Positions 23,351-56,300 of a DNA stretch of 64,000 nt are shown in pieces. The stretch is from a virus (taxonomy: Duplodnaviria; Heunggongvirae; Uroviricota; Caudoviricetes): positions 1 through 64,000 of the IMG/VR virus record IMGVR_UViG_3300028048_000103; one strand, given 5' to 3'. Below the pieces are notes generated by a model, which was given only the letters and a program-made list of their open reading frames with translations, was not told where the DNA came from and did not search any database. Numbering within the stretch: the first letter of the stretch is position 1; every line of letters begins with the position of its first letter. A program made the translations under genes and the position numbers.

Positions 23351-23373
23351 TATTACAAAATTCGTGCCAAACT
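23351..23373 (-). promoter_or_regulatory. class I promoter-like motif
   Basis: tattacaaaattcgtgccaaact, upstream of the start at 23330. Confidence 0.4.
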
Positions 23374-27853: not shown

Positions 27854-28407
27854 CTTACCACTATAACTTTCGTTACCAATATAAGACTAAAAATGACCTA
27901 CAGCACAAGAGGATTGCAGTCATTCCGTAACATCCCTTTTATGTTCCTCTTATTTCGGGTCTTTATATTGTTTGTGGTCTGGACTATCCCTTAACCATAT
28001 TGAAATCTTGCAAGATTGGATTAGGGTTCGTTCTTACCCCGAATAGCAGGTCGCTTTCCTGCACAGTTTGTTTTAATTTTAGAATCCAAATTTCAACTTA
28101 GGTTTCTTCCGTCTAGTCTCTACACACTGTCTATTACAAATACTGAAATGTAGCTTAATTGCATATATTTGCCTTCTATGCAATAACGCCTTTTCATTAC
28201 ATTCCCAATTAACACCTTTTGCAAACGAGGTGAGTATTTGTTTTTAACATTGGTTCGGTATTAGCATATATTAACAGGACTCTTCACCTGTCCGACTCAT
28301 ATAGAGTGTCTGATTTGATTTTATACTTAGCTTTCACCGAATTTGGAAGTTTCTACATCTAAAATTTCTTTTAGTGCACTCCTAATTAATTGATTATCAA
28401 TTACTTA
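27854..28407 (-). mobile_element. group I intron (about 554 nt) in the anticodon loop of tRNA-Arg(UCU), inserted after position 34
   Basis: Both flanking tRNA halves match exactly. The minus-strand reading has an R-like element GTAGAGACTA (28108-28117), an S-like GATAGTCCAGACC (about 27975-27990) and a P-like AATTCGGTGAAA (about 28335-28346) in the canonical order. It ends in G before the 3' exon, and the 5' exon ends in U. Confidence 0.6.
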
Positions 28408-28441
28408 AAGGCAGTTGCTCTATCCACTGAGCTACCGAAGC
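28408..28441 (-). tRNA. 5' exon (positions 1-34) of intron-split tRNA-Arg (UCU)
   Basis: Reverse complement: GCTTCGG-TA-GCTC-AGTGGATA-GAGC-A-ACTGC-CTT. Confidence 0.7.
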
Positions 28442-28465
28442 ATAAATAATATTTTTAAAAATTAG

Positions 28466-28504
28466 TGACCCCTGTGGGATTCGAACCCACGACCCCAACA
28501 TTAA
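28466..28504 (-). tRNA. 39-nt tRNA 3' half (anticodon N-U-U; acceptor AGGGGTC), 3' exon of the second intron copy
   Basis: Reverse complement: TTAA-TGTTG-GGGTC-GTGGGTTCGAATCCCAC-AGGGGTC-A. Same length and junction context (gtaccactataactttcgttacca) as the Arg 3' exon. Confidence 0.5.
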
Positions 28505-28932
28505 CGTACCACTATAACTTTCGTTACCAGTTGCAAACAAGGAGTTTAGCCCTATATTTACATACCTGTTTGTGGTCTGGACTGTATCTTAACCATATTG
28601 AAATCTTGCAAGATACTGTATGAAGAGATTTGCTGAGTTGCACAGCCTGTATCTAACTCCGGTTTCACTGGGAACATTCATACAATAATTTCAACTTAGG
28701 TTCCTCCTGTATAGTCTCTACACACTGTCTAAAGGTATTGCATTCTTGCAACTAAACTATCTCACTCCTTTTAACATTGGCTCGGTATTACCATCAGCAA
28801 CATACTTTCAAATCATTAATCCTCAGTATTCCCAAAGCATTCATTTACTTGTACGTTCTGTTAAGGTTTCACCGAATTAGGGAGGTTCTACATCCGAAGT
28901 TTCCTTCGGTGCACTCAAATTACACATTGTTC
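28505..28932 (-). mobile_element. second group I intron copy (about 430 nt), homologous to 27854..28407
   Basis: Shares four conserved blocks with intron 1: 3'-terminal accactataactttcgttacca, the S-like block at 28567-28612, the R-like block at 28688-28730, and the P-like block plus gtgcactc at 28870-28908. The central regions are divergent. Confidence 0.5.
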
Positions 28933-28967
28933 AAGACCGCTGCATTAGACCACTCTGCCACCTCACC
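28933..28967 (-). tRNA. tRNA 5' half resembling tRNA-Ser(UGA) (class II D-arm), 5' exon of the second intron copy
   Basis: Reverse complement: GGTGAGG-TG-GCA-GAGTGGTCTAA-TGC-A-GCGGT-CTT. This follows the architecture of a bacterial tRNA-Ser(UGA) 5' half. The acceptor GGTGAGG does NOT pair with the 3' half at 28466..28504. Confidence 0.45.
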
Positions 28968-29109
28968 GTAAAATAAAGATTATTCTGAACTCTGTCACCA
29001 TTAACAAATATTAGATAAAAATCTAATATTTAACAAATATTAGGTAAAAGTCTAATAATATTGTTAAACATTTATTCAATGTTACTGTCAGTTTTTTCTT
29101 TATTAAGAA

Positions 29110-29160
29110 AGTCACCATAGTATGCTGCAAGTTGGAATTGAACCAACAACTATATTCAGT
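29110..29160 (-). tRNA. orphan tRNA 3'-half-like element (T-arm GTTGGTTCAATTCCAAC, acceptor TTGCAGC)
   Basis: Good T-arm and 3' acceptor, but no canonical D or anticodon arm upstream. Possibly another split or degenerate tRNA. Confidence 0.25.
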
Positions 29161-29378: not shown

Positions 29379-29405
29379 AATTTATTTCAAAGAACAATTG
29401 TTTAT

Positions 29406-29428
29406 CTTACAAATATCGTGCCAAAATA
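29406..29428 (-). promoter_or_regulatory. class I promoter-like motif upstream of tRNA-Pro
   Basis: cttacaaatatcgtgccaaaata. Confidence 0.4.
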
Positions 29429-29451: not shown

Positions 29452-29488
29452 CGGGAATGATAGGATTCGAACCTATAACCTACGGATT
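29452..29488 (-). tRNA. 3' exon of split tRNA-Asn (anticodon GUU)
   Basis: Reverse complement: AA-TCCGT-AGGTT-ATAGGTTCGAATCCTAT-CATTCCC-G. It pairs 7/7 (acceptor) and 5/5 (anticodon stem) with the 5' exon at 29591..29626. Confidence 0.6.
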
Positions 29489-29490
29489 AG

Positions 29491-29562
29491 ACTCAGCAAA
29501 AGGAATCGAACCTTTTTTTGGACTTGCAATGCCACCCGTCCTAACCATTAGACGATACTGAG
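29491..29562 (-). tRNA. tRNA-like element embedded inside the tRNA-Asn intervening sequence
   Basis: Reverse complement: acceptor CTCAGTA/TGCTGAG, D-arm GTCT-AATGGTTA-GGAC, T-arm AAAGGTTCGATTCCTTT. The anticodon-arm region GGTGGCATTGCAAGTCC does not form a canonical stem. Confidence 0.4.
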
Positions 29563-29590
29563 TTGGTTCGTTTCGGTGAACCATTCCGTT

Positions 29591-29626
29591 AACAGTCCGT
29601 TGCACTAACCGTTGTGCTACATTCCC
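29591..29626 (-). tRNA. 5' exon of split tRNA-Asn (GUU)
   Basis: Reverse complement: GGGAATG-TA-GCAC-AACGGTTA-GTGC-A-ACGGA-CTGTT(AA). Confidence 0.6.
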
Positions 29627-29975: not shown

Positions 29976-30185
29976 AAAAAATATTGAGTTACTTGTCCTT
30001 ATCACCTTACAGTTGGTTCGTACTTCCTTCGCCTTGGATAATATATTGTTCATGCATGTCAACTATATTACCTGTACACCTTTACAACCCGCTATTGTTT
30101 TCACTGTAACACATACTTGCAAAAGCTGAAAGTTGTTTTCCTAATCCCTCACTCAATATTAAAATTTCAAAGAACATTTATTTAT

Positions 30186-30208
30186 CTTACAAAAATCATG
30201 CCAAAGGC
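30186..30208 (-). promoter_or_regulatory. class I promoter-like motif
   Basis: cttacaaaaatcatgccaaaggc, pointing leftward into the non-coding region 29981-30180 and the tRNA at 29902. Confidence 0.4.
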
Positions 30209-30234: not shown

Positions 30235-30915
30235 TTACTTATTTAATATTTTGCCGTACAATTGGCCTCTTTTAAAATATTTTGATTTACCTGTGCGAGT
30301 TGGTTCAAGACTTTCTGTTATAATTTTGTCTATATCAATAGTATTTTCTCTCAAAGCCAAATCATCATATATTTTTTTTACTTGTTCAAAAAAAGGTATT
30401 CTAAATTTAAAATGCTTGGATATTTGTGTATAATAGTTATCATCATCTGTTGCATCTACAATTTCATGTTCTTCATGTTGAAGTTTTAATTGTGAGTGCT
30501 TGTCATCACCTTCCCAATATTGATACGAAACCTCTCCATCGTTTTGCATATCAACAAATATCACACTTTCTTGGTTATATTTGTAGCATAGATAAAGTGT
30601 ATCTTCAATAGTGATATTATATACCATTATAGAATTCTCAATACCATCATAGTTACCTTTTACTTTAAAATATTTATAATGTCCAATACTAAGTTGTCTT
30701 TCTAATTCATTACTTGCTTGCTGATTATATTCTTTTTCAGCCTTATTACCCATAGGATTTTCTGCTGAAATAATAGCCATTGTTCTAACCCTACGATTAG
30801 TTCCTCGTATTGCTTGTTGTGCTTTTTGTCTGCGTGATGTTTCCATCATGGCATTTTTAACACTTTTCTCTATTATATTTCTTAAATCAGTTTCAGTAAG
30901 AACTATTTTTTTCAT
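30235..30915 (-). CDS. hypothetical protein
   Basis: 226-aa ORF between tRNA blocks. Confidence 0.5.
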   Translation of the reverse strand: MKKIVLTETDLRNIIEKSVKNAMMETSRRQKAQQAIRGTNRRVRTMAIISAENPMGNKAEKEYNQQASNELERQLSIGHYKYFKVKGNYDGIENSIMVYNITIEDTLYLCYKYNQESVIFVDMQNDGEVSYQYWEGDDKHSQLKLQHEEHEIVDATDDDNYYTQISKHFKFRIPFFEQVKKIYDDLALRENTIDIDKIITESLEPTRTGKSKYFKRGQLYGKILNK

Positions 30916-31775: not shown

Positions 31776-31798
31776 CTTACAAAAATCATGCCAAAATA
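31776..31798 (-). promoter_or_regulatory. class I promoter-like motif upstream of the Trp-Cys-Leu-Ile-Leu-Tyr tRNA block
   Basis: tatcttacaaaaatcatgccaaaataaa, about 12 nt upstream (minus sense) of tRNA-Trp. Confidence 0.45.
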
Positions 31799-32109
31799 AA
31801 AAACCTCTTGGTTTTAATTCTTATTTTGTTGAAGGAATTTTAACTAAGAGGTTGGGAAAAATATGTTGTGGTTAGAAACCTATGTGATTTACTTTATACT
31901 TTCTTATCCTCTTTACAGTTTGTTCTTTCATGTGATGGTTCTTCACATGGGAGTACAAAACTATCATAACCATTAATTTGATTAACGGTTTGCCAGGATT
32001 TATATGTATAATTTTTTTGTAACATAAACAGTTATTTTCGCTTATAAATATTATTGTTTTTTAAAAAAATAAAAAAATATTAAAAAAAATCAACATTTTT
32101 TTTAAAAAG

Positions 32110-32940
32110 TTACAAATTTTCGTCAATAATATCATTAAATATTAAATGCGGATGAAATTTAATGATATCATTTTGTGCTTTAATGATGGTTTTTCCAATT
32201 TTGTTAGTATAAGTTTTAACAACATTTTTTGCCATATTATACCACCAATTAAAAGTTTTATTAAAAGTAGTATTCAGTATTTCATTAATTTTTTCTTTTT
32301 GGTTAGGTGTTAGGGTGTTTGTTACTTTATCAATTGTATTAATGTTTTTATATACTATTGTATTTTTTACTGTTTCAAAAGGGTCAATTTGCCAATTGTC
32401 CATAATTTGTTTATAAATTTCATTTATGAATGCATCTTTTTCAAATTTGTTGTTATAATATATAACATATCCTACTATTTTTTCAAAAGCATCTGTTGAT
32501 TTAGCTAATTTAGTTGCCGTATTATACATTTTTTTAGATTTATCATTATTTAATAAATCTTTACTTGATTTCATTTCTTGAAAAAGGTGTTCTATTTCAT
32601 GTTGTGTTGTTCCATTATAGTCAACATATCTATTTTGGTTTCTGAGGTAGCATAAAGTTGTTGTTAAATAATTATTTTTAAAGTTTCCTGGATTTACCAA
32701 ATTAAGTTTTTTAATGTCAGTACTATCGTTCAAATAAAATATTTGATATTCCACTTCAATAGGAAAACTAAAAACAAATGTTCTAAAAATACCTTTTTTA
32801 ATATTATTTTGTTTATTTTGTTCTTTAGCATTTTTAACTATGTTGGCAATTAACATATTAGTTTCTTTAACAACCGTCCTTGATATTCCAAGTTCTTCGT
32901 TTATTACCTTTTTGATTTCAGTTATTAAATTTTTTTCCAT
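32110..32940 (-). CDS. HExxH-motif protein, paralog 1 of 3 (putative zinc metalloprotease)
   Basis: 276 aa. Carries GTTQHEIEHLFQEMKS, YYNNKFEKDAFINEIYKQIMDN and KTFNWWYNMAKNVVKTY. Homologous to 33916..34800 and 38275..39135. Confidence 0.55.
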   Translation of the reverse strand: MEKNLITEIKKVINEELGISRTVVKETNMLIANIVKNAKEQNKQNNIKKGIFRTFVFSFPIEVEYQIFYLNDSTDIKKLNLVNPGNFKNNYLTTTLCYLRNQNRYVDYNGTTQHEIEHLFQEMKSSKDLLNNDKSKKMYNTATKLAKSTDAFEKIVGYVIYYNNKFEKDAFINEIYKQIMDNWQIDPFETVKNTIVYKNINTIDKVTNTLTPNQKEKINEILNTTFNKTFNWWYNMAKNVVKTYTNKIGKTIIKAQNDIIKFHPHLIFNDIIDENL

Positions 32941-34840: not shown

Positions 34841-34984
34841 AGATATGGCATGTGCATGTAAACAAAAATCATCAGGTGAAGTTAAGGCTGTTAAACAAGT
34901 AGTAAAAAATGTTAACAAAAAAACAACGCCTAATACAAGTGTAAAGAAAACAACTGTAAGAAAAATTACTTATAGAAGACCCAT
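34841..34984 (+). CDS. possible small basic protein (about 47 aa, MACACKQKSSGEVKAVKQVVKNVNKK...)
   Basis: The only plus-strand ORF in the 188-nt gap between two minus genes; part of track ORF 34794..34988. Confidence 0.2.
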
Positions 34985-34988
34985 TTAA

Positions 34989-36563
34989 TTATAATCCGAC
35001 AGATAATGGATATTTAATTGAGGGATATGACTGATATTCTTTAATCTTAATATCACCATATGTAAACTCTTCTATATTTTTCCTCTCAGGATTAAGCCAT
35101 AACTTAGGAAGTCCATACATGTGTGGATTTCTATTTTTTTGCTCTTTTTCGTAAATTTCAATTTGGTTTTCATACATATGTACATCACCACCGCTAAATA
35201 TAAGTTCATCTACACCCATATTACAACATTGCGCAATCATATAAGTCATTATAGAATAGGAAGTTATATTGTACGGTAAACCTAAACCACAATCCACGCT
35301 GCGCTGATTCCACATACAACTTAGTTTTCTTGTTGGAACACCTGCATTGTCAAATATTCTATTACTTCTTTCCTCATCATCAGGATACCATATAACAGAC
35401 CCATCAGCATAATTATCAACTACGTATTGTTCTCTTTCTTTGAAAGTCATTTTCTTCGTATAGAACTGACAGCAATAGTGACAAGGAGGCAATGCCATTG
35501 TTTTTAATTCACCAACGTTCCAAGCGGAAACAATAAGCCTTCTGTCATCAGGGTTAGTTTTAAGTTTATTAATAAGTTCATTAATTTGGTCAACACCGTT
35601 CCAATTTCTCCATTGTTTACCATAAACAGGGCCTAAATCACCAAACACATACTGTTTATAAGTAGATAAATTATCTTCGATACTTTTAGGGTATATTTTA
35701 GTTTGTTTTAAAACCTCAGATAAAAAATCATTTTTTGAAAGTTGTGGTGTTGTATTATTTTTGGTAAGTTCCAAATAATACCTATATGCATCATCATCCC
35801 AAATATGAACACCATTTTCTACTAAATATTTAATATTGGTTTCACCTTTTAAAAACCAAAGAAGTTCATGAATAATTCCTTTTGTAAATACTTTTTTTGT
35901 CGTGAGTATTGGTAAACCCTCTTTTAAATTAAATCTAAGTTGTTTACCAAATAATGACCTTGTTTTACCTGCTCTTGTATCTTTGATTTCACCATGTTCA
36001 ATAATATCATTAACTAAATTAAGATATTGTTCATCAACATGATTGTTCATACCATTACATTTAATATATGTCATTGCATAAGCCTTTCTATGTTCTATCT
36101 CAATAGGTTGACCAATTTCCTCCCAATTTGGATTCGTTACAATATCTGGAAAAAAAGTATCAGCATCAGGTACATCAACCGCAAGCATATCAATCATCAC
36201 CTTGTCTACTAAATTATGTGATAAAGCATAATCATATATACTTGCACCACCAATAATGAAAATTTCATCATCTATTGTTTTAGCATAACTTATTGCTTCT
36301 TCGACATCACTGACAACTTTTACATCTTTATATCTTGCTTCATATTCTTTTCTTGAAGTAACAACAATATTGGTTCTGTTTGGAAGTGGATGACCAATTG
36401 CTTCAAATGTTTTTCTACCCATAATAACAGGATGTCCTGTTGTTGTGTCTTTAAACCATTTTAAATCCGCCTTATTATTCCAAGGCATATTTCCTTTTAT
36501 ACCAATAGGGAAACCATGATTTGGTACATAGTTTCCCACGGCAACAATAATATTAACACTCAT
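34989..36563 (-). CDS. bifunctional dihydrofolate reductase-thymidylate synthase (DHFR N-terminal, TS C-terminal)
   Basis: 524 aa. The N-terminus IVAVGNYVPNHGFPIGIKGNMPWN...DLKWFKDTTTGHPVIMGRKTFEAIG...RTNIVVTS matches DHFR. The C-terminus PVYGKQWRNW...DDRRLIVSAWNVGEL...MALPPCHYCCQFY matches ThyA including the catalytic Cys. Confidence 0.8.
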   Translation of the reverse strand: MSVNIIVAVGNYVPNHGFPIGIKGNMPWNNKADLKWFKDTTTGHPVIMGRKTFEAIGHPLPNRTNIVVTSRKEYEARYKDVKVVSDVEEAISYAKTIDDEIFIIGGASIYDYALSHNLVDKVMIDMLAVDVPDADTFFPDIVTNPNWEEIGQPIEIEHRKAYAMTYIKCNGMNNHVDEQYLNLVNDIIEHGEIKDTRAGKTRSLFGKQLRFNLKEGLPILTTKKVFTKGIIHELLWFLKGETNIKYLVENGVHIWDDDAYRYYLELTKNNTTPQLSKNDFLSEVLKQTKIYPKSIEDNLSTYKQYVFGDLGPVYGKQWRNWNGVDQINELINKLKTNPDDRRLIVSAWNVGELKTMALPPCHYCCQFYTKKMTFKEREQYVVDNYADGSVIWYPDDEERSNRIFDNAGVPTRKLSCMWNQRSVDCGLGLPYNITSYSIMTYMIAQCCNMGVDELIFSGGDVHMYENQIEIYEKEQKNRNPHMYGLPKLWLNPERKNIEEFTYGDIKIKEYQSYPSIKYPLSVGL

Positions 36564-37278: not shown

Positions 37279-37303
37279 TTTTTAACAAATATATAAAAAG
37301 TTA
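37279..37303 (-). promoter_or_regulatory. class II variant promoter-like motif
   Basis: tttttaacaaatatataaaaagtt, about 12 nt upstream of the ClpP ATG. Confidence 0.35.
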
Positions 37304-40354: not shown

Positions 40355-41404
40355 TTAAACCAATTCAAGTTCAGTAAATTGTTTTTTTGATTTCATTATT
40401 TTAATTATATTTTTTTTACCATCTTCTTCATAGGCTTCGCCAAAATCTTTCCACGGTAATGTGTTAGTTCCTAATCTAACATACCAAATTTTGCCATATA
40501 GTTTTCCTTGATTAAGTAGTTGGTATATTCTTTTTATTTCACTAATATCAACATCACCATCAAGACATATTGTGACATTGGCATTTGCTTTTTTATAAAT
40601 TTTTTTATAGAGTTCAGTATCTTTAGTTAATGCTTTTCCAAGTAAACTAATAACATTGCCGTTGCCATATATACAATCAATTGCACCCTCAACAAGCCAT
40701 ATATCAGCGTTCCATTTAATTTTGTCTTCCTGAAATATTATTTGTTTTTTATCAATATTACAGTTTTTATATTTAACTTTTTTGGAATTACCTGAAAAAT
40801 CTCTTCCAACCCAATAATTTAAATCACCATTAATATCATATGATGGTATTATAATCCTATCTCTATCTTGCCATTTTTCCTCATCCCAAGTAGTATAACC
40901 AATGTTATAATAATCAATAATTTCTTGGTTAATATTTCTTTTTTTTAGATATTCAACTAATTTCTTTTTTTTACATTTTTCAAGATTAATTTTAGTAAAA
41001 GTTGGTGGCAAAACAACATTGTTTGTTATACCTAATAAATTATTTTGATTATCTTTGAATAGTTCTAAATTATAATATTTATTTTCTTTAAATTCATCAA
41101 TTATTGCAAAATATTCAGACAATAATTCAGAAGTGCCCCATCGTTTTATCAATTTTGATATGTTACCACCATGTTCAGTTGACCAATCATGATATTTACC
41201 TAATGATAAAGATACTTCAAGATTATATTTGCCATCAGGTATTCCACTGTTTTCATCAGTTATCCAAGGTGAATTAAATTGATATTGAGTTTCATTTACA
41301 TTGAACCCTCCTTGTTTTGATTCACCTAAAATTGTTTGTAAAATGTTATATATACTTTTTACTTCTAATGGTAACATATATAGTGGTTTTGTACAAAAAT
41401 ACAA
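40355..41404 (-). CDS. Toprim-domain protein (DnaG-like primase candidate)
   Basis: 349 aa. WLVEGAIDCIYGNGNVISLLG ... VTICLDGDVD gives the conserved Glu and the DxD of a Toprim fold. Confidence 0.45.
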   Translation of the reverse strand: MYFCTKPLYMLPLEVKSIYNILQTILGESKQGGFNVNETQYQFNSPWITDENSGIPDGKYNLEVSLSLGKYHDWSTEHGGNISKLIKRWGTSELLSEYFAIIDEFKENKYYNLELFKDNQNNLLGITNNVVLPPTFTKINLEKCKKKKLVEYLKKRNINQEIIDYYNIGYTTWDEEKWQDRDRIIIPSYDINGDLNYWVGRDFSGNSKKVKYKNCNIDKKQIIFQEDKIKWNADIWLVEGAIDCIYGNGNVISLLGKALTKDTELYKKIYKKANANVTICLDGDVDISEIKRIYQLLNQGKLYGKIWYVRLGTNTLPWKDFGEAYEEDGKKNIIKIMKSKKQFTELELV

Positions 41405-41439
41405 AAAAAAATTAAATAAACAAAAAAGGCTTAGATTTT

Positions 41440-42294
41440 CTAAGCCTTAATAGTAGATACAACATTCAATAGTCTTTTCTTAGTTTTAGAAATTATTTGT
41501 CTAATACGTTCAGAGGAAAAACCAAGTTGTTCTCCAATTTCATAATTAGTATATTCTTTATCATAATCAATGCCAAAAGCCATTTTCATTATTGTTCTAT
41601 CTCTTTCGTTTAATATTGAAAGAAGTTTCTTTATTACTGCCTTGTTATGTTCCTTATCTATTGTCTCTTCATAATCATTATAACTGGCTGTTCTTTGATT
41701 ATATGCTTTGGTTTTTTCTTTAGTATTTTCTTCATCATCAAGAAAATCATTTATTGATTCCGATGAAATATCAAATACTTCACTTTCATTCTGAATTTCA
41801 ACATTAAAATCATTTTTCATGAAATCAATTATTTCATCATCAGAAGGATATCTACCGTTTTCGCAATAAAATTTGTTTTTAATCTTATTTAGTTTAGTAC
41901 CAATTTTCATATTATTGGTTCTTTTAATAAGAAGATTATCATTTGTCATATAATAATTTATGGCCCTTCTTATATACCAAACAGCATATGACAAAAATCT
42001 TACACCTTTTGTATCATCATATTTTTCAATTGCCGTAATGAGGCCAATGTTACCTTCATTAACTAAGTCCATTATTGAATCATCTGATGCATATCTTTTG
42101 GCAATAGCAAAAACAAACCTCTGATTACAATTAATAAGTTTTTCTCTTGCTTCATTATCACCTTCTTTAATCTTATAAATCAAATCAATTTCCTCATCAG
42201 GAGAAAGCAAAGGATATTTGCGTATTTCGGAAAGATAAGTATTAAGACCATCAGTTTTAGGTGTAAAACCACCATTAATAAGTTTAATATTCAT
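41440..42294 (-). CDS. sigma-70 family RNA polymerase sigma factor
   Basis: 284 aa. Region 2 reads DLVNEGNIGLITAIEKYDDTKGVRFLSYAVWYIRRAI. A region 4-like helix-turn-helix reads YTNYEIGEQLGFSSERIRQIISKTKKRL. Confidence 0.7.
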   Translation of the reverse strand: MNIKLINGGFTPKTDGLNTYLSEIRKYPLLSPDEEIDLIYKIKEGDNEAREKLINCNQRFVFAIAKRYASDDSIMDLVNEGNIGLITAIEKYDDTKGVRFLSYAVWYIRRAINYYMTNDNLLIKRTNNMKIGTKLNKIKNKFYCENGRYPSDDEIIDFMKNDFNVEIQNESEVFDISSESINDFLDDEENTKEKTKAYNQRTASYNDYEETIDKEHNKAVIKKLLSILNERDRTIMKMAFGIDYDKEYTNYEIGEQLGFSSERIRQIISKTKKRLLNVVSTIKA

Positions 42295-42304: not shown

Positions 42305-42655
42305 TTAATTTAAATTATATAAAATTTTTCCGTATTTAGTTTTTCCTTCTCTTATATATTTACCATCAATATTGTAAATTATTTCACCATATGATGTCTG
42401 CCCTTTCCTTATATAGTTTCCATCAATAGTATAAACTATTTTACCATAAGAAGAAGGTCCTTTTCTTATATATTTACCATCAATATAAAAGAGAATATAA
42501 CCATAACTTGTTTGTCCCTTTCTTATATATTTACCGTCAATATTATAAACGATTTCGCCATAACTTGTTTGTCCTTTTCTAATGTTAATTTTTTCAGAAA
42601 AGGGTGATAGTATAAATGAAAGGAGTATAGTTAGTATTAACAAAAATCGCACCAA
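42305..42655 (-). CDS. secreted tandem-repeat protein (four 19-aa repeats, MORN-like)
   Basis: 116 aa. A hydrophobic N-terminus is followed by four YIRKGQTSYGxIxYNIDGK repeats. Confidence 0.5.
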   Translation of the reverse strand: MVRFLLILTILLSFILSPFSEKINIRKGQTSYGEIVYNIDGKYIRKGQTSYGYILFYIDGKYIRKGPSSYGKIVYTIDGNYIRKGQTSYGEIIYNIDGKYIREGKTKYGKILYNLN

Positions 42656-42659
42656 ACTT

Positions 42660-47231: not shown

Positions 47232-47266
47232 ATTTAAATTAAATTTTCTTTTATTACTCTACAAAA

Positions 47267-47289
47267 ATCATGCCAAATATGTTTTTAAA
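47267..47289 (-). promoter_or_regulatory. class I promoter-like motif
   Basis: ctctacaaaaatcatgccaaata, upstream of the start at 47231. Confidence 0.45.
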
Positions 47290-47503
47290 GTCGTGCTACA
47301 ATTCTTCCTCTTGTTAAATCATATGGTGACATTTCAATTTTAACTTTATCACCAACAATTACTTTAATAAAATTTTGTCTCATTTTACCTGATGATTGGC
47401 ATAAAATAATCATACCATTACTGTCTAATTGTACCCTAAACATTACATTGGGTAAACTTTCAATAACAACACCTGTTTGTTCTATCAATGCTTGTTTTGC
47501 CAT
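47285..47503 (-). CDS. infA: translation initiation factor IF-1 homolog
   Basis: 72 aa. [72 protein letters not shown] is collinear with bacterial IF-1 (S1-like OB fold). The blocks MFRV, SGKMR and PYDL..GRIV are conserved. Confidence 0.75.
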
Positions 47504-47558
47504 ATGCTTTTAATATATTATTTTTTACAAAAATACAAATTATTTTTTAAAAAACAAA

Positions 47559-47625: not shown

Positions 47626-48801
47626 TTATATAATTTTCTTTCTAATAATTTCATATGAGTCTTCAGTGAAGTTATAGATATCAGCAAGTGTCAGCCCCTT
47701 ATTTACCTTAGGTATTTCAGTTTCTGTTGTAGGAACATTTCCTCTATTTTCTATATCTTCTTCGGTAGTTTCTACCTCTTCCTTAGCCTTTTCGGTATAA
47801 ACAAATTCAAGAAGTGCATTTGTTTTTTCAACTGTAAGTGGTTTAAATTCATATTTACTTACAAGCCTACCCTTTCTCATAAGTGCTGAATCAATATCTT
47901 TTATATCAGCATTAAAAGTACAAATAAATTTAATACCAAGGTCATCAGCAAGTAGTCCATCAGACATATTAAGAAGGGTTGAAACGCCTGAGGTCATACC
48001 TGTGGTTCTTCTATCCCTAATAACGTTTTCGCAATCTTCAAGAATAATTATATGGTCACTAAGAGTATTAAGGAATGAAGTAAATGCTGGTTGTCCTAAC
48101 ATTTCCACAAGGTCAGGGGTAACATAAACAAATTTTCTACTTGGATTAGTATTAATAAGATTTCTAATGTAGGTTGTTTTTCCTGTACCTTTTTCACCAT
48201 GAAGAATTACAAGGCCACTCTTATCTTTATCTTCAATAAATTTCTTAATCTTTTCGTCTTCGTGGACAAAATCATCATTATATTGTCTTTCAATTGAAAA
48301 ATTCTTTACTTCCTTAATCTTACCTTTCTGTAAACAGAAACCTGCTTGTGTTTGTGCAATTTTCCATATATTACCCTTTTCTTCATCAGGTGCAACATAA
48401 AAGTCATTAAGTGTATTTACTAAATTGACAAGATTTTCAGTGTTATTATTTCCGTAAAGAATATAACACTCATTGACCTGCTTTTCAAATCTTGCAAAAA
48501 GATTTTGTTTTAGAAGAACAACGCAAAAACCCATTGAATCTTCTTTAGTGTCAATATTATGTGTTATATACTGAATATATTCCATTTCAGTCTCATCATA
48601 TGTTTCTATAAAATAATCAAACAATTTTTTAACATCAAAAAAATTATCATTTCCCTTATAGTTTTTTGTAAACATATAGCAGTTAGGGAAATAACCGTTT
48701 TTAACAAAAAATAAATTTTGCAGGGACAAACCATCAACCTCATTGTAAATTGATGACATTGATTTATCCATCAATAGATTTTTAAAATTACTTTCTTTCA
48801 T
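47626..48801 (-). CDS. AAA+ ATPase
   Basis: 391 aa. Walker A is GEKGTGKTT, Walker B is IIILEDCE, and an arginine-finger region lies downstream. Confidence 0.65.
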   Translation of the reverse strand: MKESNFKNLLMDKSMSSIYNEVDGLSLQNLFFVKNGYFPNCYMFTKNYKGNDNFFDVKKLFDYFIETYDETEMEYIQYITHNIDTKEDSMGFCVVLLKQNLFARFEKQVNECYILYGNNNTENLVNLVNTLNDFYVAPDEEKGNIWKIAQTQAGFCLQKGKIKEVKNFSIERQYNDDFVHEDEKIKKFIEDKDKSGLVILHGEKGTGKTTYIRNLINTNPSRKFVYVTPDLVEMLGQPAFTSFLNTLSDHIIILEDCENVIRDRRTTGMTSGVSTLLNMSDGLLADDLGIKFICTFNADIKDIDSALMRKGRLVSKYEFKPLTVEKTNALLEFVYTEKAKEEVETTEEDIENRGNVPTTETEIPKVNKGLTLADIYNFTEDSYEIIRKKII

Positions 48802-48865
48802 ATAATAATATTTTTAAACTTTCTTTTGCAAATATACTAACATTATTTTAAAAAAACAAATCATT

Positions 48866-50736: not shown

Positions 50737-50760
50737 TTTTATACAAATATATAAAAAATA
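50737..50760 (-). promoter_or_regulatory. class II variant promoter-like motif upstream of the helicase
   Basis: tttttatacaaatatataaaaaata. Confidence 0.35.
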
Positions 50761-50859
50761 ACTATAATTAACAAAGAAAATGTTTTTATCTTTTAAACAA
50801 CTATTTATTGTTAAATAATAGTATTGAAATTATAAAAAAATAAAATAAATATTTTAATT

Positions 50860-52173
50860 ATGGGAAAATATATTCATTATTTTGATTCAGTAACTGAATA
50901 TAATGATATGAGAGAAAATCATTATGAAGAACCATGGACATCATTAACAGAAGAAAATGATGAGGTTAACTTTAATAAAACATTGGAAGAAACTCCATTA
51001 ACATTTGAAATAACAGGTGATGGCAATATTGTATGGAAAGCAAGTAATACCGCCTATACTGTTACTTTGGAATATAAGTTAAATGATGGTGAATGGACTG
51101 AGATAACATCAACAACAGGTGGTACAACAATACCTGTTGTTAGTGGTGATACTATTCAGTTCAGAGGAAATAATACTACTTATACAAGTTATGATATTGA
51201 CGATAATACGTTTAATGGTAGCACAGCACAATTTAGTGTTAAGGGTAATATAATGTCATTGCTTGATAGTACTAACTTTACAACAATGAACACATTATCA
51301 AGTGCTTATACATTTTATAAATTATTTTATGATTGTACTGGCTTAACTGATGCTTCTAAACTAATTTTACCTGCTACTACATTAACAAGTTATTGTTATG
51401 ACAATATGTTCAATGGTTGTATTTCATTAACAACAGCACCTGAATTACCTGCAACTACTTTAGCAAATGATTGTTATTATGAAATGTTCAATGGATGTAC
51501 ATCATTGACAACAGCGCCTGAATTACCGGCAACTACATTAGCACCTTATTGTTATGAATGTATGTTCCAAGGATGTACGTCATTAACAACAGCACCTGAA
51601 TTACCTGCTACTACATTAGCGGATAATTGTTATAGTACTATGTTCAATGGTTGTATTTCATTAACAACAGCACCTGAATTACCTGCAACTACTTTAGCAA
51701 ATGATTGTTATGGTAGTATGTTCTATGGCTGTACTTCATTAACCCAAGCACCTGCATTACCTGCTACTACATTAGCACCTTATTGTTATGAGTATATGTT
51801 CGATGGTTGTACATCATTAACAACAGCACCGGAATTACCTGCAACTAACTTATCAGGAGCAAATAATTGTTATCAATATATGTTCCAAGGTTGTTCAAGT
51901 TTAACCCAAGCCCCTGAATTACCGGCCACAACATTGGTTTCGAATTGTTACGATAGTATGTTTAGAAACTGTACAAATTTAAATTATATTAAATGTCTTG
52001 CAACTAATATTTCAGCAACTAATTGTACTCAAAATTGGGTAAATGGTGTGGCTGCATCAGGTACATTTGTTGCTTATGATAGTAATGTTGCATGGCAAGT
52101 AGACAATGTAAATGGTATTCCAACAGGTTGGACTATTGATTATGAATATTCTTCTGAACCGTTAGTATCTTAA
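50860..52173 (+). CDS. BspA-type leucine-rich-repeat protein (putative receptor-binding / tail protein)
   Basis: 437 aa with at least 9 tandem repeats of about 23 aa (NCYxxMFxGCTSLTTAPELPATTLAxxCY), typical of the Bacteroidota BspA-like LRR class. Confidence 0.6.
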   Translation: MGKYIHYFDSVTEYNDMRENHYEEPWTSLTEENDEVNFNKTLEETPLTFEITGDGNIVWKASNTAYTVTLEYKLNDGEWTEITSTTGGTTIPVVSGDTIQFRGNNTTYTSYDIDDNTFNGSTAQFSVKGNIMSLLDSTNFTTMNTLSSAYTFYKLFYDCTGLTDASKLILPATTLTSYCYDNMFNGCISLTTAPELPATTLANDCYYEMFNGCTSLTTAPELPATTLAPYCYECMFQGCTSLTTAPELPATTLADNCYSTMFNGCISLTTAPELPATTLANDCYGSMFYGCTSLTQAPALPATTLAPYCYEYMFDGCTSLTTAPELPATNLSGANNCYQYMFQGCSSLTQAPELPATTLVSNCYDSMFRNCTNLNYIKCLATNISATNCTQNWVNGVAASGTFVAYDSNVAWQVDNVNGIPTGWTIDYEYSSEPLVS

Positions 52174-52372
52174 AAAAAATATTTACTTTTTCAGTTTTTC
52201 TATAATAAGAAATTATTTATATGAAAACGGATAGAAATTGAGGATATATTTTTATGTTACCGAATCCCTTTTCTGATTTTCAGTTTTTATGGTAGATAAG
52301 TAATTATCTACCATTTTTTTTGTTTCCAATGACTATTTATAAGAAAAATATTGTTTAAAAAATAATTAAAAT

Positions 52373-53314
52373 ATGGGTAGAATTTTATATAATAAAAACA
52401 CAGTACAAGAAAGTGGTGTTTCAGCATTATTTGATAGTACACTTTATACAGGTGAACTTGTTTTAAACAACAATAATGACAACCCTGGTTTATGGATGTC
52501 AAAAGCAAATGGCACAAAGATAAAGGTCAACGGTGCTAAGAATGTTAAAATGGATGAGAGTCTTTCATCATTATCAGGTGCAATTGCAGCAAATGATAGT
52601 GTTCATGATGCTATTTCCAAGTTAAATAACAACACATATACCAAACAAGAAGTTGACGATAAAATTTCTCAATCAGGCACGTTTGACCCAAGTCAATATT
52701 ATACCAAAAATGATATTGATAATAAGCATTATATAACAAGTGGTGATGCAAAAACTCAGATTGAGAATTATCACTATACTACTTCAGGTAATGTTAAAAC
52801 ACAGGTAGAGAATTATCATTATATCACTTCAGGTGATGCAAAAACACAAATAGAAAATTATCACTATATTACTTCTGCTGATACTTCTAATGCAGCAAAG
52901 AAATTAGACCACAATGTAACATTATCATTAAGTGGTGAAGTAAAAGGTAGTGCTGTAACTGATTTTTCAGGCAATGCAGTTGCCATGAATACATACAAGA
53001 CTTTTACAACAGTAACAAGTTTAAGTAATCTTACTTTTGAAAATTTCCTTACAGTTGCAACAATTGGAGCAAATGCAACTTTAACAATCTCATCTACAGG
53101 TTTAGTTTCAATACCTAATGGTGCAGTAAGAGAAGGACATTTGCTTATACAGAACAGCAGTTCTTCAAATATTGCAATTACAATTGCAAGTGATAGTAGA
53201 GTAAAAACAACCAACGGTACAACTTTCACTGTTGAAGGAAATGGTATTGGTGAATTAAATGCACTTATTACCAATAATGGTGGTACTTATACTGTTTATA
53301 TTATTACTTCGTAA
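52373..53314 (+). CDS. tail fiber-like protein with tandem 13-aa repeats
   Basis: 313 aa. TQIENYHYTTSGNVK/TQVENYHYITSGDAK/TQIENYHYITSADT repeats, with a Ser/Thr/Asn-rich beta-rich C-terminus. Confidence 0.5.
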   Translation: MGRILYNKNTVQESGVSALFDSTLYTGELVLNNNNDNPGLWMSKANGTKIKVNGAKNVKMDESLSSLSGAIAANDSVHDAISKLNNNTYTKQEVDDKISQSGTFDPSQYYTKNDIDNKHYITSGDAKTQIENYHYTTSGNVKTQVENYHYITSGDAKTQIENYHYITSADTSNAAKKLDHNVTLSLSGEVKGSAVTDFSGNAVAMNTYKTFTTVTSLSNLTFENFLTVATIGANATLTISSTGLVSIPNGAVREGHLLIQNSSSSNIAITIASDSRVKTTNGTTFTVEGNGIGELNALITNNGGTYTVYIITS

Positions 53315-53379: not shown

Positions 53380-56300
53380 ATGGCAAGAAGAAGATTACTT
53401 TTTTCATATTTTTATTTAACATATAACGGAAACAAATATGGTGAAACCGTCAATGTATCATCATTCAGTGAAGATGGTGGTACTGATAGTTTTTCCGTAA
53501 CATCAAGTAAAGAATGGAACATTGTTTCAAGCCCATCATGGATAACAGCAAGTGTTACAAGTGGTGGGAAAGGAGAAACATCCGTTACATTAACAGCAAG
53601 TGTAAATGAAGGTACTTCTGAAAAAACAGGTAGTATTGTAATTAAAACCGTTGATGATAGATATACAGCAACACTTTATGTTACACAAGATGGTATTGTT
53701 CCTTACATTAGAATAAACAATAATGATGCTGATGTTAATGAAAATGTTGCTTTCCGTAGCACAATTAGCAGTTATACAATTAAATCTCGTGGAGGATGGA
53801 CACTTGCTATTACAGGTGGTACAACTAATGTTACTGCAATAACAGACACCAATGTAGTTGAAACTGCTTTAACAATAAATTACCCCAAAAACACTGACAC
53901 CGGTTCATCTAAAACAATTAAGATTGTTCTTACTAATACAAGTGATAGTACAATTAAAAGAACAATTACATTAACACAGGCAGCACAATCGTATATTACA
54001 TTCACAAGAAATGGTGCTGATGCAAATGTAATACCATATAATGGAGAAGTTGGAAGTATTTTAGTTAAAACCAATGATATAGGTTATGCGTTTGAAGAAT
54101 CTTCACAATTTGAATTATCTAAAACACTTGGTTTAAATAATAATGAAACCATCTCTTATACAGCGCAAACGCTTACAACAGCAAATACAGCAACGACTGT
54201 AAGCATATCTGTTACGGCAAAAACAAGTGATTATGATGCTTCTGATAACATTGACCAAAAAGTATATACATATCAATATGAATTATACCCATATCTTAAT
54301 GTTGCAAATGTTAATGTAAGTAGTGCTTCAACAACAGGCAGTACCACATATTCTTCAAATTATAATGTAATTAATGCTACACCTGCAAGTCAAGGTATAA
54401 CCAATATTGTGGTTAACAATGGTAATGTTACTTTCACATTACCTGAACCATCATGGAATGATGAAACATATACATTAAACTTACAAACAACAGGTACTGT
54501 TGGTCCTGGTTTAAGTACAACTGCAACAATAACAAGACCTGCCAAAGTTGCTTATCTTAATACTTCGAATATAACAGTTTCAAAAAATGCAGGTGACCCT
54601 ACCAATAATATTATTGGTGCAATTGATACTAATGATACTTATACATTAGATGTTACTTCAGGTAGTGATTGGTTAACTTATAACCCAACAACAGGTACTT
54701 TCTCAATGACAGAAAATACAGGTACAGAAGATAGGACAGCAACCATTACTGTTACAACAACACATAATGGTTCAAACGGCAGTCCTATAGTTAAAACTAT
54801 TACTGTTACACAAGAAGCAATACCTACTGTTGAACAAAATATTACTGTTAACCTTGATATGAAACAAAATAATGGTGGAACTTGGTATATTAAAACAAGT
54901 ACAAGTAATTCATCACTAAATTTCCCAATTACAATTTCTTATGGTGGAAATCAATTTAATACCACAGTTAATAATGGAAATTTTGTTCAAACACCATTTA
55001 CAACAGCCGTAGGTACACAAATTAATACAACAAATATTAGTGGTACACCAAGTTATTTGGATGCTGATGCACATATTAGATATAACATAACCTATGTAAT
55101 GCCAACAAATGTTGCTTATACAGAAACAGTACAAAGTCTTGTTCCAACATCAGTTGAATTAACATATTCTGATACTGATTTCTTGGCAAACGGTAATGCT
55201 TCAACCACTTCACAATATAGTACACCAAGCAATTTTGTTATTAATTATAATGAAATTATTGCTAATAGTTTTGATAATACAACAAGAACTGTTGCAAAAA
55301 CTGAAAGTGGTTTAAACCATATTACAAGTCTTGATGTTACAACATCTAACGGTGGTGCTGTTAACGGAACATATAATATTGGTGCAGCAAGTAGAGGCAC
55401 AACAACAGGAAATTCACAAACAGTTGCTGTTATTGATAAAGTAAACTATACTTTTTCAGGACAGACTTATACTTATGATATTCCTAATATTACCTTTACA
55501 CAGGAAGCAAACGTTGCAGGTGCACCGGTATATGTTAGTGGTGAAACAAACAGTACTGTTACTAATACTGACATACAATCATTCTATCAAGACATTGGAA
55601 TAACAACAGCAACAACTGGTGGTACATCTTTTACAGCAAAAGGTACTAATACAAATGCAGGATATAGTGGAAACAATTATATTCAAGCAAGAGCAACTGA
55701 AACAGGACACACCTATGATATAACAACAACCACACTTTCTGTAACAGGTACAAGTGCATTTACTATTACATATACATCAGGTGAACACACTGATTCTATA
55801 ACAAGTAACACATGGACTGACACTAATGTTGTGACAGGTTCAGTAACAACTTATTCACAAAAAGCACAATATTCAGGTAGTAGTCAAAGCTGGTTATCTT
55901 ATAATAATAGTAATGAACATGCAACTGCACAAAACAGAGGTATTGTAACAGGTAACACACGAAGTGGATTATTATATTTTTATGCTGAACATGATAATTC
56001 AATAAAAGTAAATATTCAATTTAGTCAAAACCAAAACAAACTTGAAAGTTGGACTAAGACAGCTGAATATGAGGTTAGTCGAACATTTGTTTCAGCAGTG
56101 ACAAACTCAACAAGTGAAGAATATAGAAATATTTCAATTGACATAACGGCAAGTGAAACCGATTTTAAGGCTAATGGACACACATTAAATGATAACTCAA
56201 CTATTTCAGTAAGTGCAACAGAAACTGGCGAAAAATGTATTACTTCATCAGTCACATCAACATATGAGGTAGAGATGGGTTATGATTGGATTGATTATTA

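Follow-up and report, generated by a model that had tools for sequence, protein, structure and literature searches.

Sigma factor gene and its transcription unit

The analyzed stretch of DNA (the window) comprises 64 kb of the apparently ~94.5 kb genome of a gut Bacteroidales phage. The longest contig with this sigma factor is 94,522 bp, and 4 kb more sequence was recovered beyond one window edge. The phage has no close cultured relative, and a DNA search with 12 kb of the window against GenBank phages returned no match. On its minus strand, the window encodes a sigma-70-family factor, the last gene of a nine-gene unit that has a class A and a class B promoter (see below) at its head and a terminator at its end. 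The gene and the terminators of this region are as follows:

41440-42294, minus: 284-aa sigma-70-family factor of the phage; regions 1.2, 2, and 4, region 3 weak
41426-41448, minus: intrinsic terminator, overlapping the sigma stop codon
47557-47587, minus: intrinsic terminator; precedes the class A promoter at 47521

The assignment of this gene by an earlier sequence-only reading was borne out by Pfam matches to the region for core binding and -10 recognition (Sigma70_r2, PF04542; 1e-15) and to that for -35 recognition by a helix-turn-helix (Sigma70_r4, PF04545; 9e-11), both above the cut-offs, and to Sigma70_r1_2 (PF00140; 1e-8). Region 3 (PF04539) scored 17.8 bits versus a cut-off of 25.3 bits, with the matched stretch overlapping region 4. 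Over its full length, the protein aligned with SigA chains of solved structure (E = 1e-35). Its identification as RpoD, RpoS, or RpoH was rejected because NCBIfam gave only partial scores, to RpoS/RpoD models (best 125–150 bits versus cut-offs of 323–572 bits), and the closest relatives are from phages. All homologues with 41%–68% identity were located in phage-like contigs, and the alignment placed the protein in a phage-only clade with the signature RFLSYA[IV]WYIRR. A search of IMG/VR with the single protein found no homologues; the alignment-based search succeeded.

Like the phages that encode SPO1 gp28 and gp33/34 or T4 gp55, sigma-70-family factors running temporal cascades, this phage has its own sigma factor in a unit under host-type promoters. 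Unlike the SPO1 and T4 sigmas, the present one is full length and group 1/2-like (regions 1.2, 2, and 4), forms a separate clade confined to large gut phage contigs, and has a cognate promoter that is here a candidate.

Class A: host sigma-A promoters

Three promoter-like classes (A, B, and C) are present in the window. Class A, TTTG-N19-20-TATATTTG, corresponds to the canonical sigma-A promoter of Bacteroidota and is located upstream of replication genes. The window contains 14 matches, all on the minus strand, versus 0.73 expected. Among these promoters are:

47521-47539, minus: upstream of an IF-1-like gene; also feeds the sigma-containing unit
41387-41405, minus: serves the primase gene; immediately follows the terminator at the end of the sigma unit
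62330-62348, minus: found by the TTTG/-7 box scan
8253-8271, 12433-12451, 22476-22494, and 24947-24965, minus: class A promoters
37279-37297, 48822-48840, and 50737-50755, minus: class A promoters
32057-32075 and 32098-32116, minus: weak class A promoters

In those parts of PMC9723704 and PMC7366714 that refer to Bayley 2000 and Vingadassalom 2005, the Bacteroidota sigma-A promoter is given as a -33 TTTG and a -7 TAnnTTTG element. Class A fits this description completely, including the spacing of 19–20 nt. The 14 canonical TTTG/TAnnTTTG promoters, which lie elsewhere in the window than the class B motif, had been overlooked by the sequence-only reading. E. coli-type promoters were not enriched in the window (123–134 found versus 121–133 expected).

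Class B: copies, sequence, and placement

The 21-nt class B motif, TTTTGGCAYGATTTTTGTAAG, has the form TGGCAY-N5-TTG(T/C)A, or TT-TGGCAY-N5-TTG(T/C)A with the preceding TT. With up to three mismatches allowed, TTTTGGCAYGATTTTTGTAAG had 10 matches in the window, all on the minus strand, versus 0.03 expected from shuffled sequences. These matches start at 1518, 4373, 6895, 16186, 19200, 23352, 29406, 30186, 31776, and 47258. A matrix scan added 17974-17994, 9242-9262, and a weak site at 42637-42657, bringing the class to 12–13 sites. All 11 copies reported by the sequence-only reading exist, 10 of them recovered by the mismatch search and the eleventh (17974-17994) by the matrix scan. Three of their positions were off by 1–9 nt (19192, 23351, and 47267). 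The sites, with scores from the host promoter matrix described below, are:

47258-47278, minus: heads the nine-gene unit that ends with the sigma gene; 19.5 bits
42637-42657, minus: weak class-B-like site (TTGGTGCGATTTTTGTT), 10.3 bits in the matrix scan that added it; overlaps the start of the beta-flower ORF; of doubtful function
31776-31796, minus: -12 base 15 nt before tRNA-Trp
30186-30206, minus: followed by boxA-like TGTTCTTTGAAAT and 214 nt of unassigned sequence, then tRNA-Leu
29406-29426, minus: followed by boxA-like TGTTCTTTGAAAT, then tRNA-Gln
23352-23372, minus: upstream of the SprT-like gene 22503-23306
19200-19220, minus: overlaps the class A -7 box 19189-19207; immediately preceded by the terminator 19257-19224
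17974-17994, minus: TTGGCATAATTTTTGCA, with canonical TTGCA at -12; 20.0 bits
16186-16206, minus: after the bidirectional terminator 16619-16655; 21.5 bits
9242-9262, minus: TTGGTACAGTTTTTGCA, just downstream of the class-A-like box 9269-9287
6895-6915, minus: found by mismatch search and host matrix
4373-4393, minus: found by mismatch search and host matrix; 21.4 bits
1518-1538, minus: found by mismatch search and host matrix

GG, TTG, and the trailing A were invariant in 13/13 sites. The -12 base was T in 11 of the 13 sites, the weak one included, and C in two; among the 12 strong sites it was T in 10, and their N5 spacer was nearly constant (GATTT). The copies are all single, intergenic, and on the coding strand. 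In 11/13 sites, the -12 base is located 15–50 nt before a minus-strand start codon or tRNA 5' end; the other two are the weak 42637 site and 30186, which is separated from tRNA-Leu by 214 nt of unassigned sequence. Folding of the 200 nt downstream of 30186 revealed no unusual structure (z = 0.47), and Rfam detected only tRNAs. The spacing between class B and the start codon is variable, and three of the sites precede tRNAs. The unit at 31776 consists of a six-tRNA block followed by a SAM-lyase-like gene. Strong intrinsic terminators are present just upstream of the sites at 19200 and 16186.

The sequence-only reading is literally correct in that an exact TAnnTTTG is absent from the motif, which contains (G/A)ATTTTTG instead. 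Its 3' half (GATTTTTGTAA) resembles the class A -7 box (TATATTTGTAA). Class B was rejected as a -7/-33 promoter of the Bacteroidota type: the first base of the box is G/A, there is no TTTG at the required distance of 19–21 nt upstream, and the second base of the box is G, C, or T in relatives. TTGGCA was likewise rejected as a -35 hexamer, because no conserved -10 hexamer is located 16–18 nt downstream in the window.

The motif's strand specificity, intergenic location, position after terminators and before genes or tRNA blocks, and conservation in related phages agree with its earlier description as a promoter class. It is very improbable that the sites are instead operators, sigma-54 decoys, or terminator or translation-start elements. 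Such a function is suggested by unrelated viral contigs of higher GC content (L062, L026, L120, and L073), where the same 15-mer occurs as perfect palindromes TTGGCACGATTTTTG-N6-CAAAAATCGTGCCAA or in 35-nt tandem arrays, a pattern pointing to binding of a dimeric protein or an RNA hairpin. The copies in the window, however, are single and without an inverted partner, and they occupy the coding strand of intergenic regions, 11/13 of them 15–50 nt before a start and often after a terminator. In addition, a translation signal is hard to reconcile with how variably they are spaced from the start codon, and the tRNAs that follow three of them speak against this reading as a whole.

Class B and host sigma-54 promoters

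Class B matches the sigma-54 consensus YTGGCACGrNNNTTGCW at 13/14 positions, with the exact GG-to-G spacing. It has GG at -24/-25 within TGGCAC, a TTGC-type -12 element, and the fixed 10-nt gap from GG to G, and it lies upstream of and co-directional with transcription units. The host -7 box is absent from the motif, as the sequence-only reading had it, but the motif corresponds to another host promoter type, the sigma-54 -24/-12 promoter.

The phage 19-mer had 10 matches across 185,579 genomes. Only two of these were in Bacteroidales, and both were upstream of chaperone genes: one 33 nt upstream of the HtpG gene in a Prevotellaceae MAG and the other upstream of a ClpB/C ATPase gene in a Bacteroidaceae MAG. 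The pattern TGGYAY-N5-TTGY was present in 64/65 distinct upstream regions of Prevotellaceae-like htpG from gut metagenomes. TTGT at -12 was found in 20/64 of these host promoters, some of them as TTTGTAAG, which shows T at -12 to be a natural variant in the host. A matrix built solely from 20 non-redundant host htpG promoters recovered 11 phage sites with 14–21.5 bits, all on the minus strand, versus two borderline matches elsewhere and 0–1 in shuffled sequences. The two sigma-54 blocks are the only fixed part of the motif in viral contigs, whether related or unrelated: the N5 spacer varies (GATTT, GGTTT, AAAAA, GCTTT, and GATAA), and many contigs with class B have canonical TTGCA at -12.

In Flavobacterium psychrophilum, mapping of transcription start sites revealed a typical -24/-12 sigma-54 motif at groESL, dnaK, grpE-dnaJ, lon, htpG, and clpB (PMC9723704), and a comparative study reported the corresponding enrichment in Bacteroidia (PMC12316311). 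Class B has the same blocks and spacing as the promoters of this Bacteroidota heat-shock and protein-quality-control regulon (SM4 of F. psychrophilum; htpG/clpB of Bacteroidia), together with the flanking T-run, the trailing A, and the tolerated T at -12. Unlike that regulon, class B is on a phage genome in 12–13 copies, precedes tRNAs and phage genes, and has no detected activator gene or upstream activator site. It also differs from the host htpG promoters (T at -12 in 20/64) in that the phage sites mostly have T and a nearly constant spacer.

The class B motif, as judged from its sequence, is very likely a sigma-54-type promoter, and its reader is probably host sigma-54. Because the motif matches host heat-shock sigma-54 promoters, the phage probably borrows the host factor. 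The presence of tRNA genes under sigma-54 control would be unusual, which is a point against this reading, as are the likeness of its 3' half to the class A -7 box and the negative searches for an activator gene, a sigma-54 gene, and a shared activator site given in the next section.

Search for sigma-54 and activator genes

Canonical sigma-54 promoters are tightly gated and strictly need an ATP-driven AAA+ activator. Neither in the window nor in any fetched locus did we find a gene for sigma-54 or for an enhancer-binding protein (bEBP; no GAFTGA, no PF00158 match). Six-frame regular-expression searches for the RpoN box and GAFTGA were negative in the window, in ~280 loci (~2 Mb), and in the cultured Bacteroides phage DAC19. 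In IMG/VR, scanning with a degenerate RpoN box returned seven unrelated contigs, none of them motif-rich or with the sigma clade. The AAA protein encoded at 47626-48801 was rejected as a sigma-54 activator, since it is a generic AAA ATPase and not PF00158. No shared upstream activator site or k-mer was found above background before 12 class B sites; the host htpG promoters had no universal upstream site either. The CTGACAAAATG element, which is located upstream of some host htpG promoters, was not enriched in the window. With T at -12 and no activator sites, class B could need little or no enhancer-binding protein.

The lack of a host-type activator site and of a bEBP gene would also agree with a reader of class B that is another phage factor, i.e., a divergent sigma-54-like protein, an activator that remodels the host polymerase like T4 MotA/AsiA, or a polymerase encoded in the remaining ~30 kb. 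About a third of the genome is outside the window, and most ORFs have no family match. Nevertheless, we consider such a factor unlikely. Since class B cannot be told apart from host sigma-54 promoters, no additional reader has to be invoked; neither the RpoN box nor GAFTGA was present in the ~2 Mb of fetched loci, and none of the seven IMG/VR contigs with an RpoN box was motif-rich or of the sigma clade. The T4 middle promoters, which are read through sigma appropriation by MotA/AsiA, are superficially similar to class B in having a conserved upstream box and a host-like downstream element. In contrast to T4, no MotA or AsiA homologue was seen here, and in class B the upstream box represents the -24 element of sigma-54, spaced accordingly.

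Class B and the phage sigma factor

The sequence-only reading proposed that the motif is phage-specific and read by the phage sigma-70-family factor or another phage RNA polymerase. With the sigma factor as the reader, GATTTTTG would be an altered -7/-10 element and TTGGCAY an extended upstream element. Several observations are consistent with it. Class B was present in 7/8 loci with a sigma at least 41% identical to the present one, compared to 0/39 loci with more distant sigmas, and DAC19 has neither the sigma nor class B. The pattern nAnnTTTG, which resembles the class A box, is kept in the 3' half of 12/13 window sites. Region 2.4 of the phage sigma reads WYIRR-x-I-N, unlike the WWIRQ-x-I-T of E. 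coli sigma-70 and the standard primary sigmas. The first sigma molecules could be supplied from the class A promoter at 47521.

The proposal was not supported, and we regard it as very unlikely. The agreement with 13/14 sigma-54 consensus positions and the 19-nt identity with the host htpG and clpB/C promoters argue against a phage-specific motif, and the 12-bp separation of its two conserved blocks disagrees with the -35/-10 geometry of the sigma-70 family. The base taken as A(-11) is replaced by G, C, or T in relatives, where ATTG or GTTG takes the place of TTTG. The sigma gene itself is downstream of class B, both in the window and in relatives. Moreover, class B heads the unit with the SAM-lyase-like gene, which has an early function in phage T3, so the promoter would be needed before any phage sigma could exist.

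Shared ancestry confounds the co-occurrence of class B and the sigma clade, as a syntenic gene module is common to these loci. Class B clusters were also found in viral contigs without a sigma in the visible 10–15 kb. A degenerate scan with RFL..A.W[YF]IRR, which misses diverged members such as L132, identified nine contigs, none of them class-B-rich (L001, L048, etc.). Since many other viral contigs in IMG/VR carry class B clusters, with up to 18 copies in 8.4 kb, the class B habit may be widespread. The sigma clade is followed more closely by another motif, ACTATTTAT (class C), which is present even in locus L131, where class B is missing.

Class C and the phage sigma factor

Class C is the motif ACTATTTAT, whose six copies in the window (6/6) are all upstream of plus-strand ORFs, including those for an endolysin amidase and a BspA-LRR protein:

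62409-62417, plus: 24 nt upstream of the amidase (endolysin) gene 62433-63215
52332-52340, plus: upstream of 52373-53314
50800-50808, plus: upstream of the BspA-LRR gene 50860-52173; likewise for its orthologue in locus L127
34817-34825, plus: upstream of the small ORF 34845-34988
16228-16236, plus: upstream of ORF 16258-16620; the orthologue in locus L071 is also preceded by ACTATTTAT
220-228, plus: upstream of ORF 269-685

No separate class C site precedes the next plus-strand gene, 53380-57342 (BACON protein), which may be transcribed together with 52373-53314. The 9-mer core of class C, with its strand and position bias, was significant, and a 19-nt version was not. In the sigma-clade loci, ACTATTTAT was observed 31 times versus 6.9 expected. 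Neither loci with other sigmas (16 versus 26.9 expected) nor class-B-rich loci in which no sigma was visible (3 versus 4.1 expected) showed enrichment of it. Class C is a better candidate for the phage sigma because it is enriched only in phages with this sigma clade. The phage sigma is more likely to read class C than class B, and that class C belongs to it is quite possible, if just short of probable. In T4, TATAAATA precedes the late genes that depend on gp55; the compact AT-rich ACTATTTAT before late-type genes is a similar arrangement.

Proposed transcription program

The overall reading we favor is rather probable: host sigma-54 reads the heat-shock-type class B, and the phage sigma is kept for a third, late class. 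In this model, the ordinary sigma-A promoters of class A would drive the replication genes. Host RNA polymerase with host sigma-54 (RpoN) would bind the 12–13 class B sites as closed complexes, which would be opened by an AAA+ activator, probably the host activator of the heat-shock regulon. Class B would then transcribe the tRNA blocks, the SAM-lyase-like gene, many small ORFs, and the operon ending in the sigma gene. Class C, presumably late, would serve the plus-strand genes, including the endolysin amidase and BspA-LRR genes, and would be read by the phage sigma. The general idea of the sequence-only reading, temporal control through several promoter classes, is plausible.

We tentatively extend this to large gut Bacteroidales phages, which might share a three-channel program: sigma-A promoters for replication, a dozen or more copies of the host's sigma-54 heat-shock promoters, through which tRNAs, anti-restriction and take-over genes, and the sigma gene would be expressed via the host stress pathway, and the phage sigma with ACTATTTAT for lysis and tail genes. 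A full-text literature search did not turn up any phage with a major gene class based on sigma-54 promoters, and no earlier report of a sigma-54-dependent regulon in a lytic phage was found. If host sigma-54 reads class B, a large part of phage gene expression, the tRNAs and the sigma included, would be coupled to the Bacteroidota heat-shock circuit, and the class B channel would stay open even if host sigma-A were shut down by the phage. This would offer a concrete route into the activation of the Bacteroidota sigma-54 heat-shock regulon, itself poorly understood, and would provide compact, portable stress-responsive promoters for engineering of Bacteroides and Prevotella. ACTATTTAT represents a testable promoter candidate for a large uncharacterized clade of phage sigma factors.

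Source phage and gene content

The source phage is uncultured and infects gut Bacteroidales. Its G+C content in the window is ~30%, and it carries 16 minus-strand tRNA genes, many small ORFs lacking a family match, and a replication and nucleotide module (fused DHFR-thymidylate synthase, ClpP, DnaG-type primase, UvrD-type helicase, AAA ATPase, several metallophosphatases, and an exonuclease). The phage additionally encodes BACON-domain and BspA-LRR proteins, an N-acetylmuramoyl-L-alanine amidase, and a SAM-lyase-like protein. A DNA-level search of GenBank phages returned none similar to the window, and the nearest cultured phages by helicase sequence were the Bacteroides thetaiotaomicron phages DAC16-23 and SJC03 (34% identity). 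The longest contig with the window's sigma gene was 94.5 kb; about a third of the genome lies outside the 64-kb window.

The DHFR-thymidylate synthase is a single 524-aa protein (34989-36563, minus strand), a fusion characteristic of protists and plants and seldom found in bacteria or phages. Within the tRNA region, 1.9 kb of above-average G+C (27228-29121; 0.34-0.36) contained no ORF of ≥45 aa and no Rfam match, and may represent an unknown RNA or decayed genes. Two Rfam tRNA matches of unusual span (29452-29626, minus strand, 175 nt; 13611-13726, minus strand, 116 nt) are possibly tRNA genes with long insertions (introns); ARAGORN made no tRNA call at 13611-13726.

The class B motif resembles host sigma-54 heat-shock promoters

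A search for TTTTGGCAYGATTTTTGTAAG with ≤3 mismatches located 10 copies of the class B motif in the window, all on the minus strand, compared with 0.03 in shuffled sequences. A position matrix made from these 10 copies found three additional sites:

17974-17994, minus strand: eleventh site of the sequence-only reading, TTGGCATAATTTTTGCA
9242-9262, minus strand: new site, TTGGTACAGTTTTTGCA
42637-42657, minus strand: weak site

All 11 copies counted by the sequence-only reading were found in this way. Their described placement, 10-50 nt upstream of gene starts or tRNAs, held for 11 of the 13 sites (15-50 nt from the -12 base to the minus-strand start codon or tRNA 5' end) and failed for the other two. 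Strong intrinsic terminators lie closely upstream of the sites at 19200 and 16186.

In the gene sense, class B reads TT-TGGCAY-GATTT-TTG(T/C)-A. It agrees with the sigma-54 -24/-12 consensus YTGGCACGrNNNTTGCW (Barrios et al. 1999, as quoted in PMC9723704) at 13 of 14 positions and with exact spacing, the sole regular deviation being T rather than C as the -12 base. In related phage loci and many unrelated IMG/VR contigs, the two sigma-54 blocks were fixed and the five spacer bases variable, and canonical TTGCA was present in many IMG/VR contigs with the element.

The phage 19-mer TTGGCAYGATTTTTGTAAG was found 10 times across 185,579 species genomes, approximately the chance number. The only two Bacteroidales matches were both upstream of chaperone genes:

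Prevotellaceae MAG: 33 nt before htpG
Bacteroidaceae MAG: ~105 nt before a ClpB/C-type ATPase gene (Pfam)

Among 65 distinct htpG upstream regions, obtained from 80 gut metagenome loci, 64 contained TGGYAY-N5-TTGY ≤200 nt from the start codon. The -12 block of these 64 promoters was TTGC in 44 and TTGT in 20, and several of them read TTTGTAAG, like the phage. When a matrix made from 20 non-redundant host htpG promoters, and no phage sites, was applied to the window, it detected 11 phage sites (14-21.5 bits, all minus strand); elsewhere it gave two borderline matches, and in shuffled sequence 0-1. In Flavobacterium psychrophilum, TSS mapping placed a 'typical -24/-12' sigma-54 motif at groESL, dnaK, grpE-dnaJ, lon, htpG, and clpB (PMC9723704). 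According to a 2025 comparative study, the predicted sigma-54 regulons in Flavobacteriia and Bacteroidia are enriched for these chaperone and protease genes (PMC12316311).

The identity with host promoters, together with the conservation across phages, argues strongly that class B is a sigma-54-type promoter of the host heat-shock kind, the unusual -12 base included. This promoter type is already known. What appears to be new is a phage with a class of genes under sigma-54 promoters modelled on those of the host heat-shock regulon, and full-text literature searches yielded no report of one.

Downstream of the class B site at 30186, a 210-nt stretch (29976-30185, minus strand) contained no ORF, tRNA, or Rfam match, and its fold was nothing unusual (z = 0.47). 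The sequence TGTTCTTTGAAAT is common to 29380-29405 and 30160-30185 (minus strand), just past two tRNA-region class B promoters, and appears similar to boxA, the antitermination element in rRNA leaders.

Two further promoter-like classes

Class A (TTTGTATATTTGTAAAAAA) occurred 14 times (0.73 expected), only on the minus strand, between 8253 and 62348 (e.g., 41387-41405, 47521-47539, and 62330-62348). Most copies had TTTG 19-20 nt upstream, and TTTG-N17-21-TAnnTTTG had 13 minus-strand matches and one plus-strand match. Downstream lie primase, ClpP, AAA ATPase, helicase, and IF-1-like genes. The conservation extends well past the host consensus TAnnTTTG. Class A has the sequence of a canonical Bacteroidota sigma-A promoter, which confirms a Bacteroidota host and points to use of host sigma-A by the phage as well.

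Class C (ACTATTTAT) was present in six copies on the plus strand only (220, 16228, 34817, 50800, 52332, and 62409). Each lies 24-60 nt upstream of a plus-strand ORF, so that six of the seven such ORFs (amidase, BspA-LRR, and four others) are preceded by one. The seventh, encoding the BACON protein (53380), lacks one and may be co-transcribed with gene 52373.

Class C 9-mer in fetched viral loci
Loci with the window's sigma clade (its phage-only relatives): observed 31, expected 6.9
Loci with more distant sigmas: observed 16, expected 26.9
Class-B-rich loci without a visible sigma: observed 3, expected 4.1

The 4.5-fold enrichment was limited to sigma-clade phages, and the 9-mer also lies upstream of orthologous genes in the fetched loci L071 and L127. 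Because of this restriction, we tentatively propose class C as a late promoter that the phage sigma may read.

The phage sigma factor and its gene unit

The sequence-only reading was right that a sigma-factor gene is present: ORF 41440-42294 (minus strand) encodes a genuine sigma-70-family protein. Pfam matched region 2 (1e-15), region 4 (9e-11), and region 1.2 (1e-8), with region 3 scoring under the cut-off, and solved SigA chains aligned with the protein over its whole length. The superfamily is known, and the clade is uncharacterised and confined to phage contigs. The gene is the last of a unit that is headed by class A (47521-47539) and class B (47258-47278) promoters and ended by a terminator overlapping the sigma stop codon. 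A class B site also lies upstream of the sigma gene in the viral loci L132, L124, and L129.

Between the two promoters of this unit lies a phage IF-1 homologue (47285-47503, minus strand; TIGR00008, E = 1e-27, above cut-off). Directly upstream of the sigma gene, 42305-42655 (minus strand) encodes a small protein with five or six near-identical ~19-aa repeats (…DGKYIRKGQTSYGEI…), which matched the Pfam 'six-fold beta-flower' (2e-27) and whose position beside sigma is kept in relatives. A further sigma-70-family ORF, shorter than the first and within 10 kb of it, is present in two relatives (L127, ~13.7-14.4 kb, minus strand; L131, 18278-19024, plus strand; E = 1e-39 to 1e-41 against the clade profile). 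In L124, a 312-kb contig, the sigma neighbours (1-12864) include SAM synthetase, poly(A) polymerase/CCA-adding enzyme, Thg1, a Tad2-like protein, and RlaP; this context is that of a jumbo phage rich in RNA-repair and anti-defence genes.

Which polymerase reads class B

It had been proposed that the phage sigma reads class B as a phage-specific promoter. TTGGYAY-N5-TTGY was indeed found in 7 of 8 loci with a sigma ≥41% identical, compared with 0 of 39 with a sigma ≤34% identical, and the cultured Bacteroides phage DAC19 has neither the sigma nor class B. However, the sigma-clade loci and the window have a syntenic gene module in common; these loci are therefore relatives of the window, and the co-occurrence is not independent evidence. 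Moreover, class B is indistinguishable from host sigma-54 promoters, and its blocks are 12 bp apart, as for sigma-54, whereas the -35/-10 geometry of the sigma-70 family spans roughly 23 bp. If the motif is read as a -7 box, the would-be essential A(-11) is G, C, or T in relatives. Gene order also speaks against the proposal, because the sigma gene ends a unit that class B helps to begin. The class B unit at 31776 includes the SAM-lyase-like gene, and such a function is early in phage T3. Finally, the sigma and class C occur without class B in L131, whereas class B occurs without class C in L001 and L048.

The proposed promoter class thus stands, but its phage specificity and its reading by the phage sigma are not supported, given the match to host sigma-54 promoters. 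Class B is probably read by the host sigma-54 holoenzyme. On the most economical reading of the sequences, host sigma-54 would serve class B and the phage sigma would act later, class C being the best candidate for its promoter.

The SAM-lyase-like protein (30235-30915, minus strand; PF23780/DUF3293) is encoded between tRNA blocks, and its function is likely anti-restriction.

Activator dependence and a possible transcription programme

The sigma-54 holoenzyme requires an AAA+ activator. No gene for such an activator or for sigma-54 was found in the 64-kb window (about two thirds of the genome), in ~280 fetched loci, or in DAC19, and the IMG/VR contigs of interest contained no phage sigma-54. 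Class B sites had no shared upstream activator site. Host htpG promoters likewise had no universal upstream site, from which we conjecture that the heat-shock activator of Bacteroidales may need no fixed enhancer. One strong host promoter may have been copied, which would account for the near-fixed class B spacer and the prevalence of T at -12; alternatively, these features could result from selection for weaker activator dependence, as in vitro work on -12 mutants of enterobacterial promoters suggests.

Under the proposed programme, host sigma-A polymerase would fire class A upon infection and express the replication genes, while host sigma-54 polymerase would sit on class B promoters. A stress-responsive activator would open these as infection loads the protein-folding system. 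Class B transcripts would cover the tRNA blocks, small ORFs, the gene for the SAM-lyase-like protein, and the operon whose last gene is the phage sigma. With this sigma, core polymerase would then be redirected to the ACTATTTAT promoters, which would serve the lysis and tail genes of opposite orientation.

Class B elements in other viral contigs

Canonical TTGGCAC-N5-TTGC formed dense arrays in the large viral contigs L048, L132 (13 in 10 kb), and L001. In L048 (IMGVR_UViG_3300028591_000072, 302 kb), 18 of these elements lie within 8.4 kb, with an ATG ~45 nt after each. In all three contigs, the array elements are followed by a conserved ~30-nt leader (…TATAGTATAGTGACAATT…AACAATTAAAAT) before the ATG.

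In unrelated viral contigs of higher GC, the sigma-54-like 15-mer occurred as perfect palindromes, TTGGCACGATTTTTG-N6-CAAAAATCGTGCCAA. The palindrome or repeat loci were:

L062, 4048-4083
L026, 11585-11700
L120
L024
L073, 3711-3990: tandem array, seven 35-nt units

These palindromes and the tandem array may represent promoters that face each other, operators, or mobile repeats.
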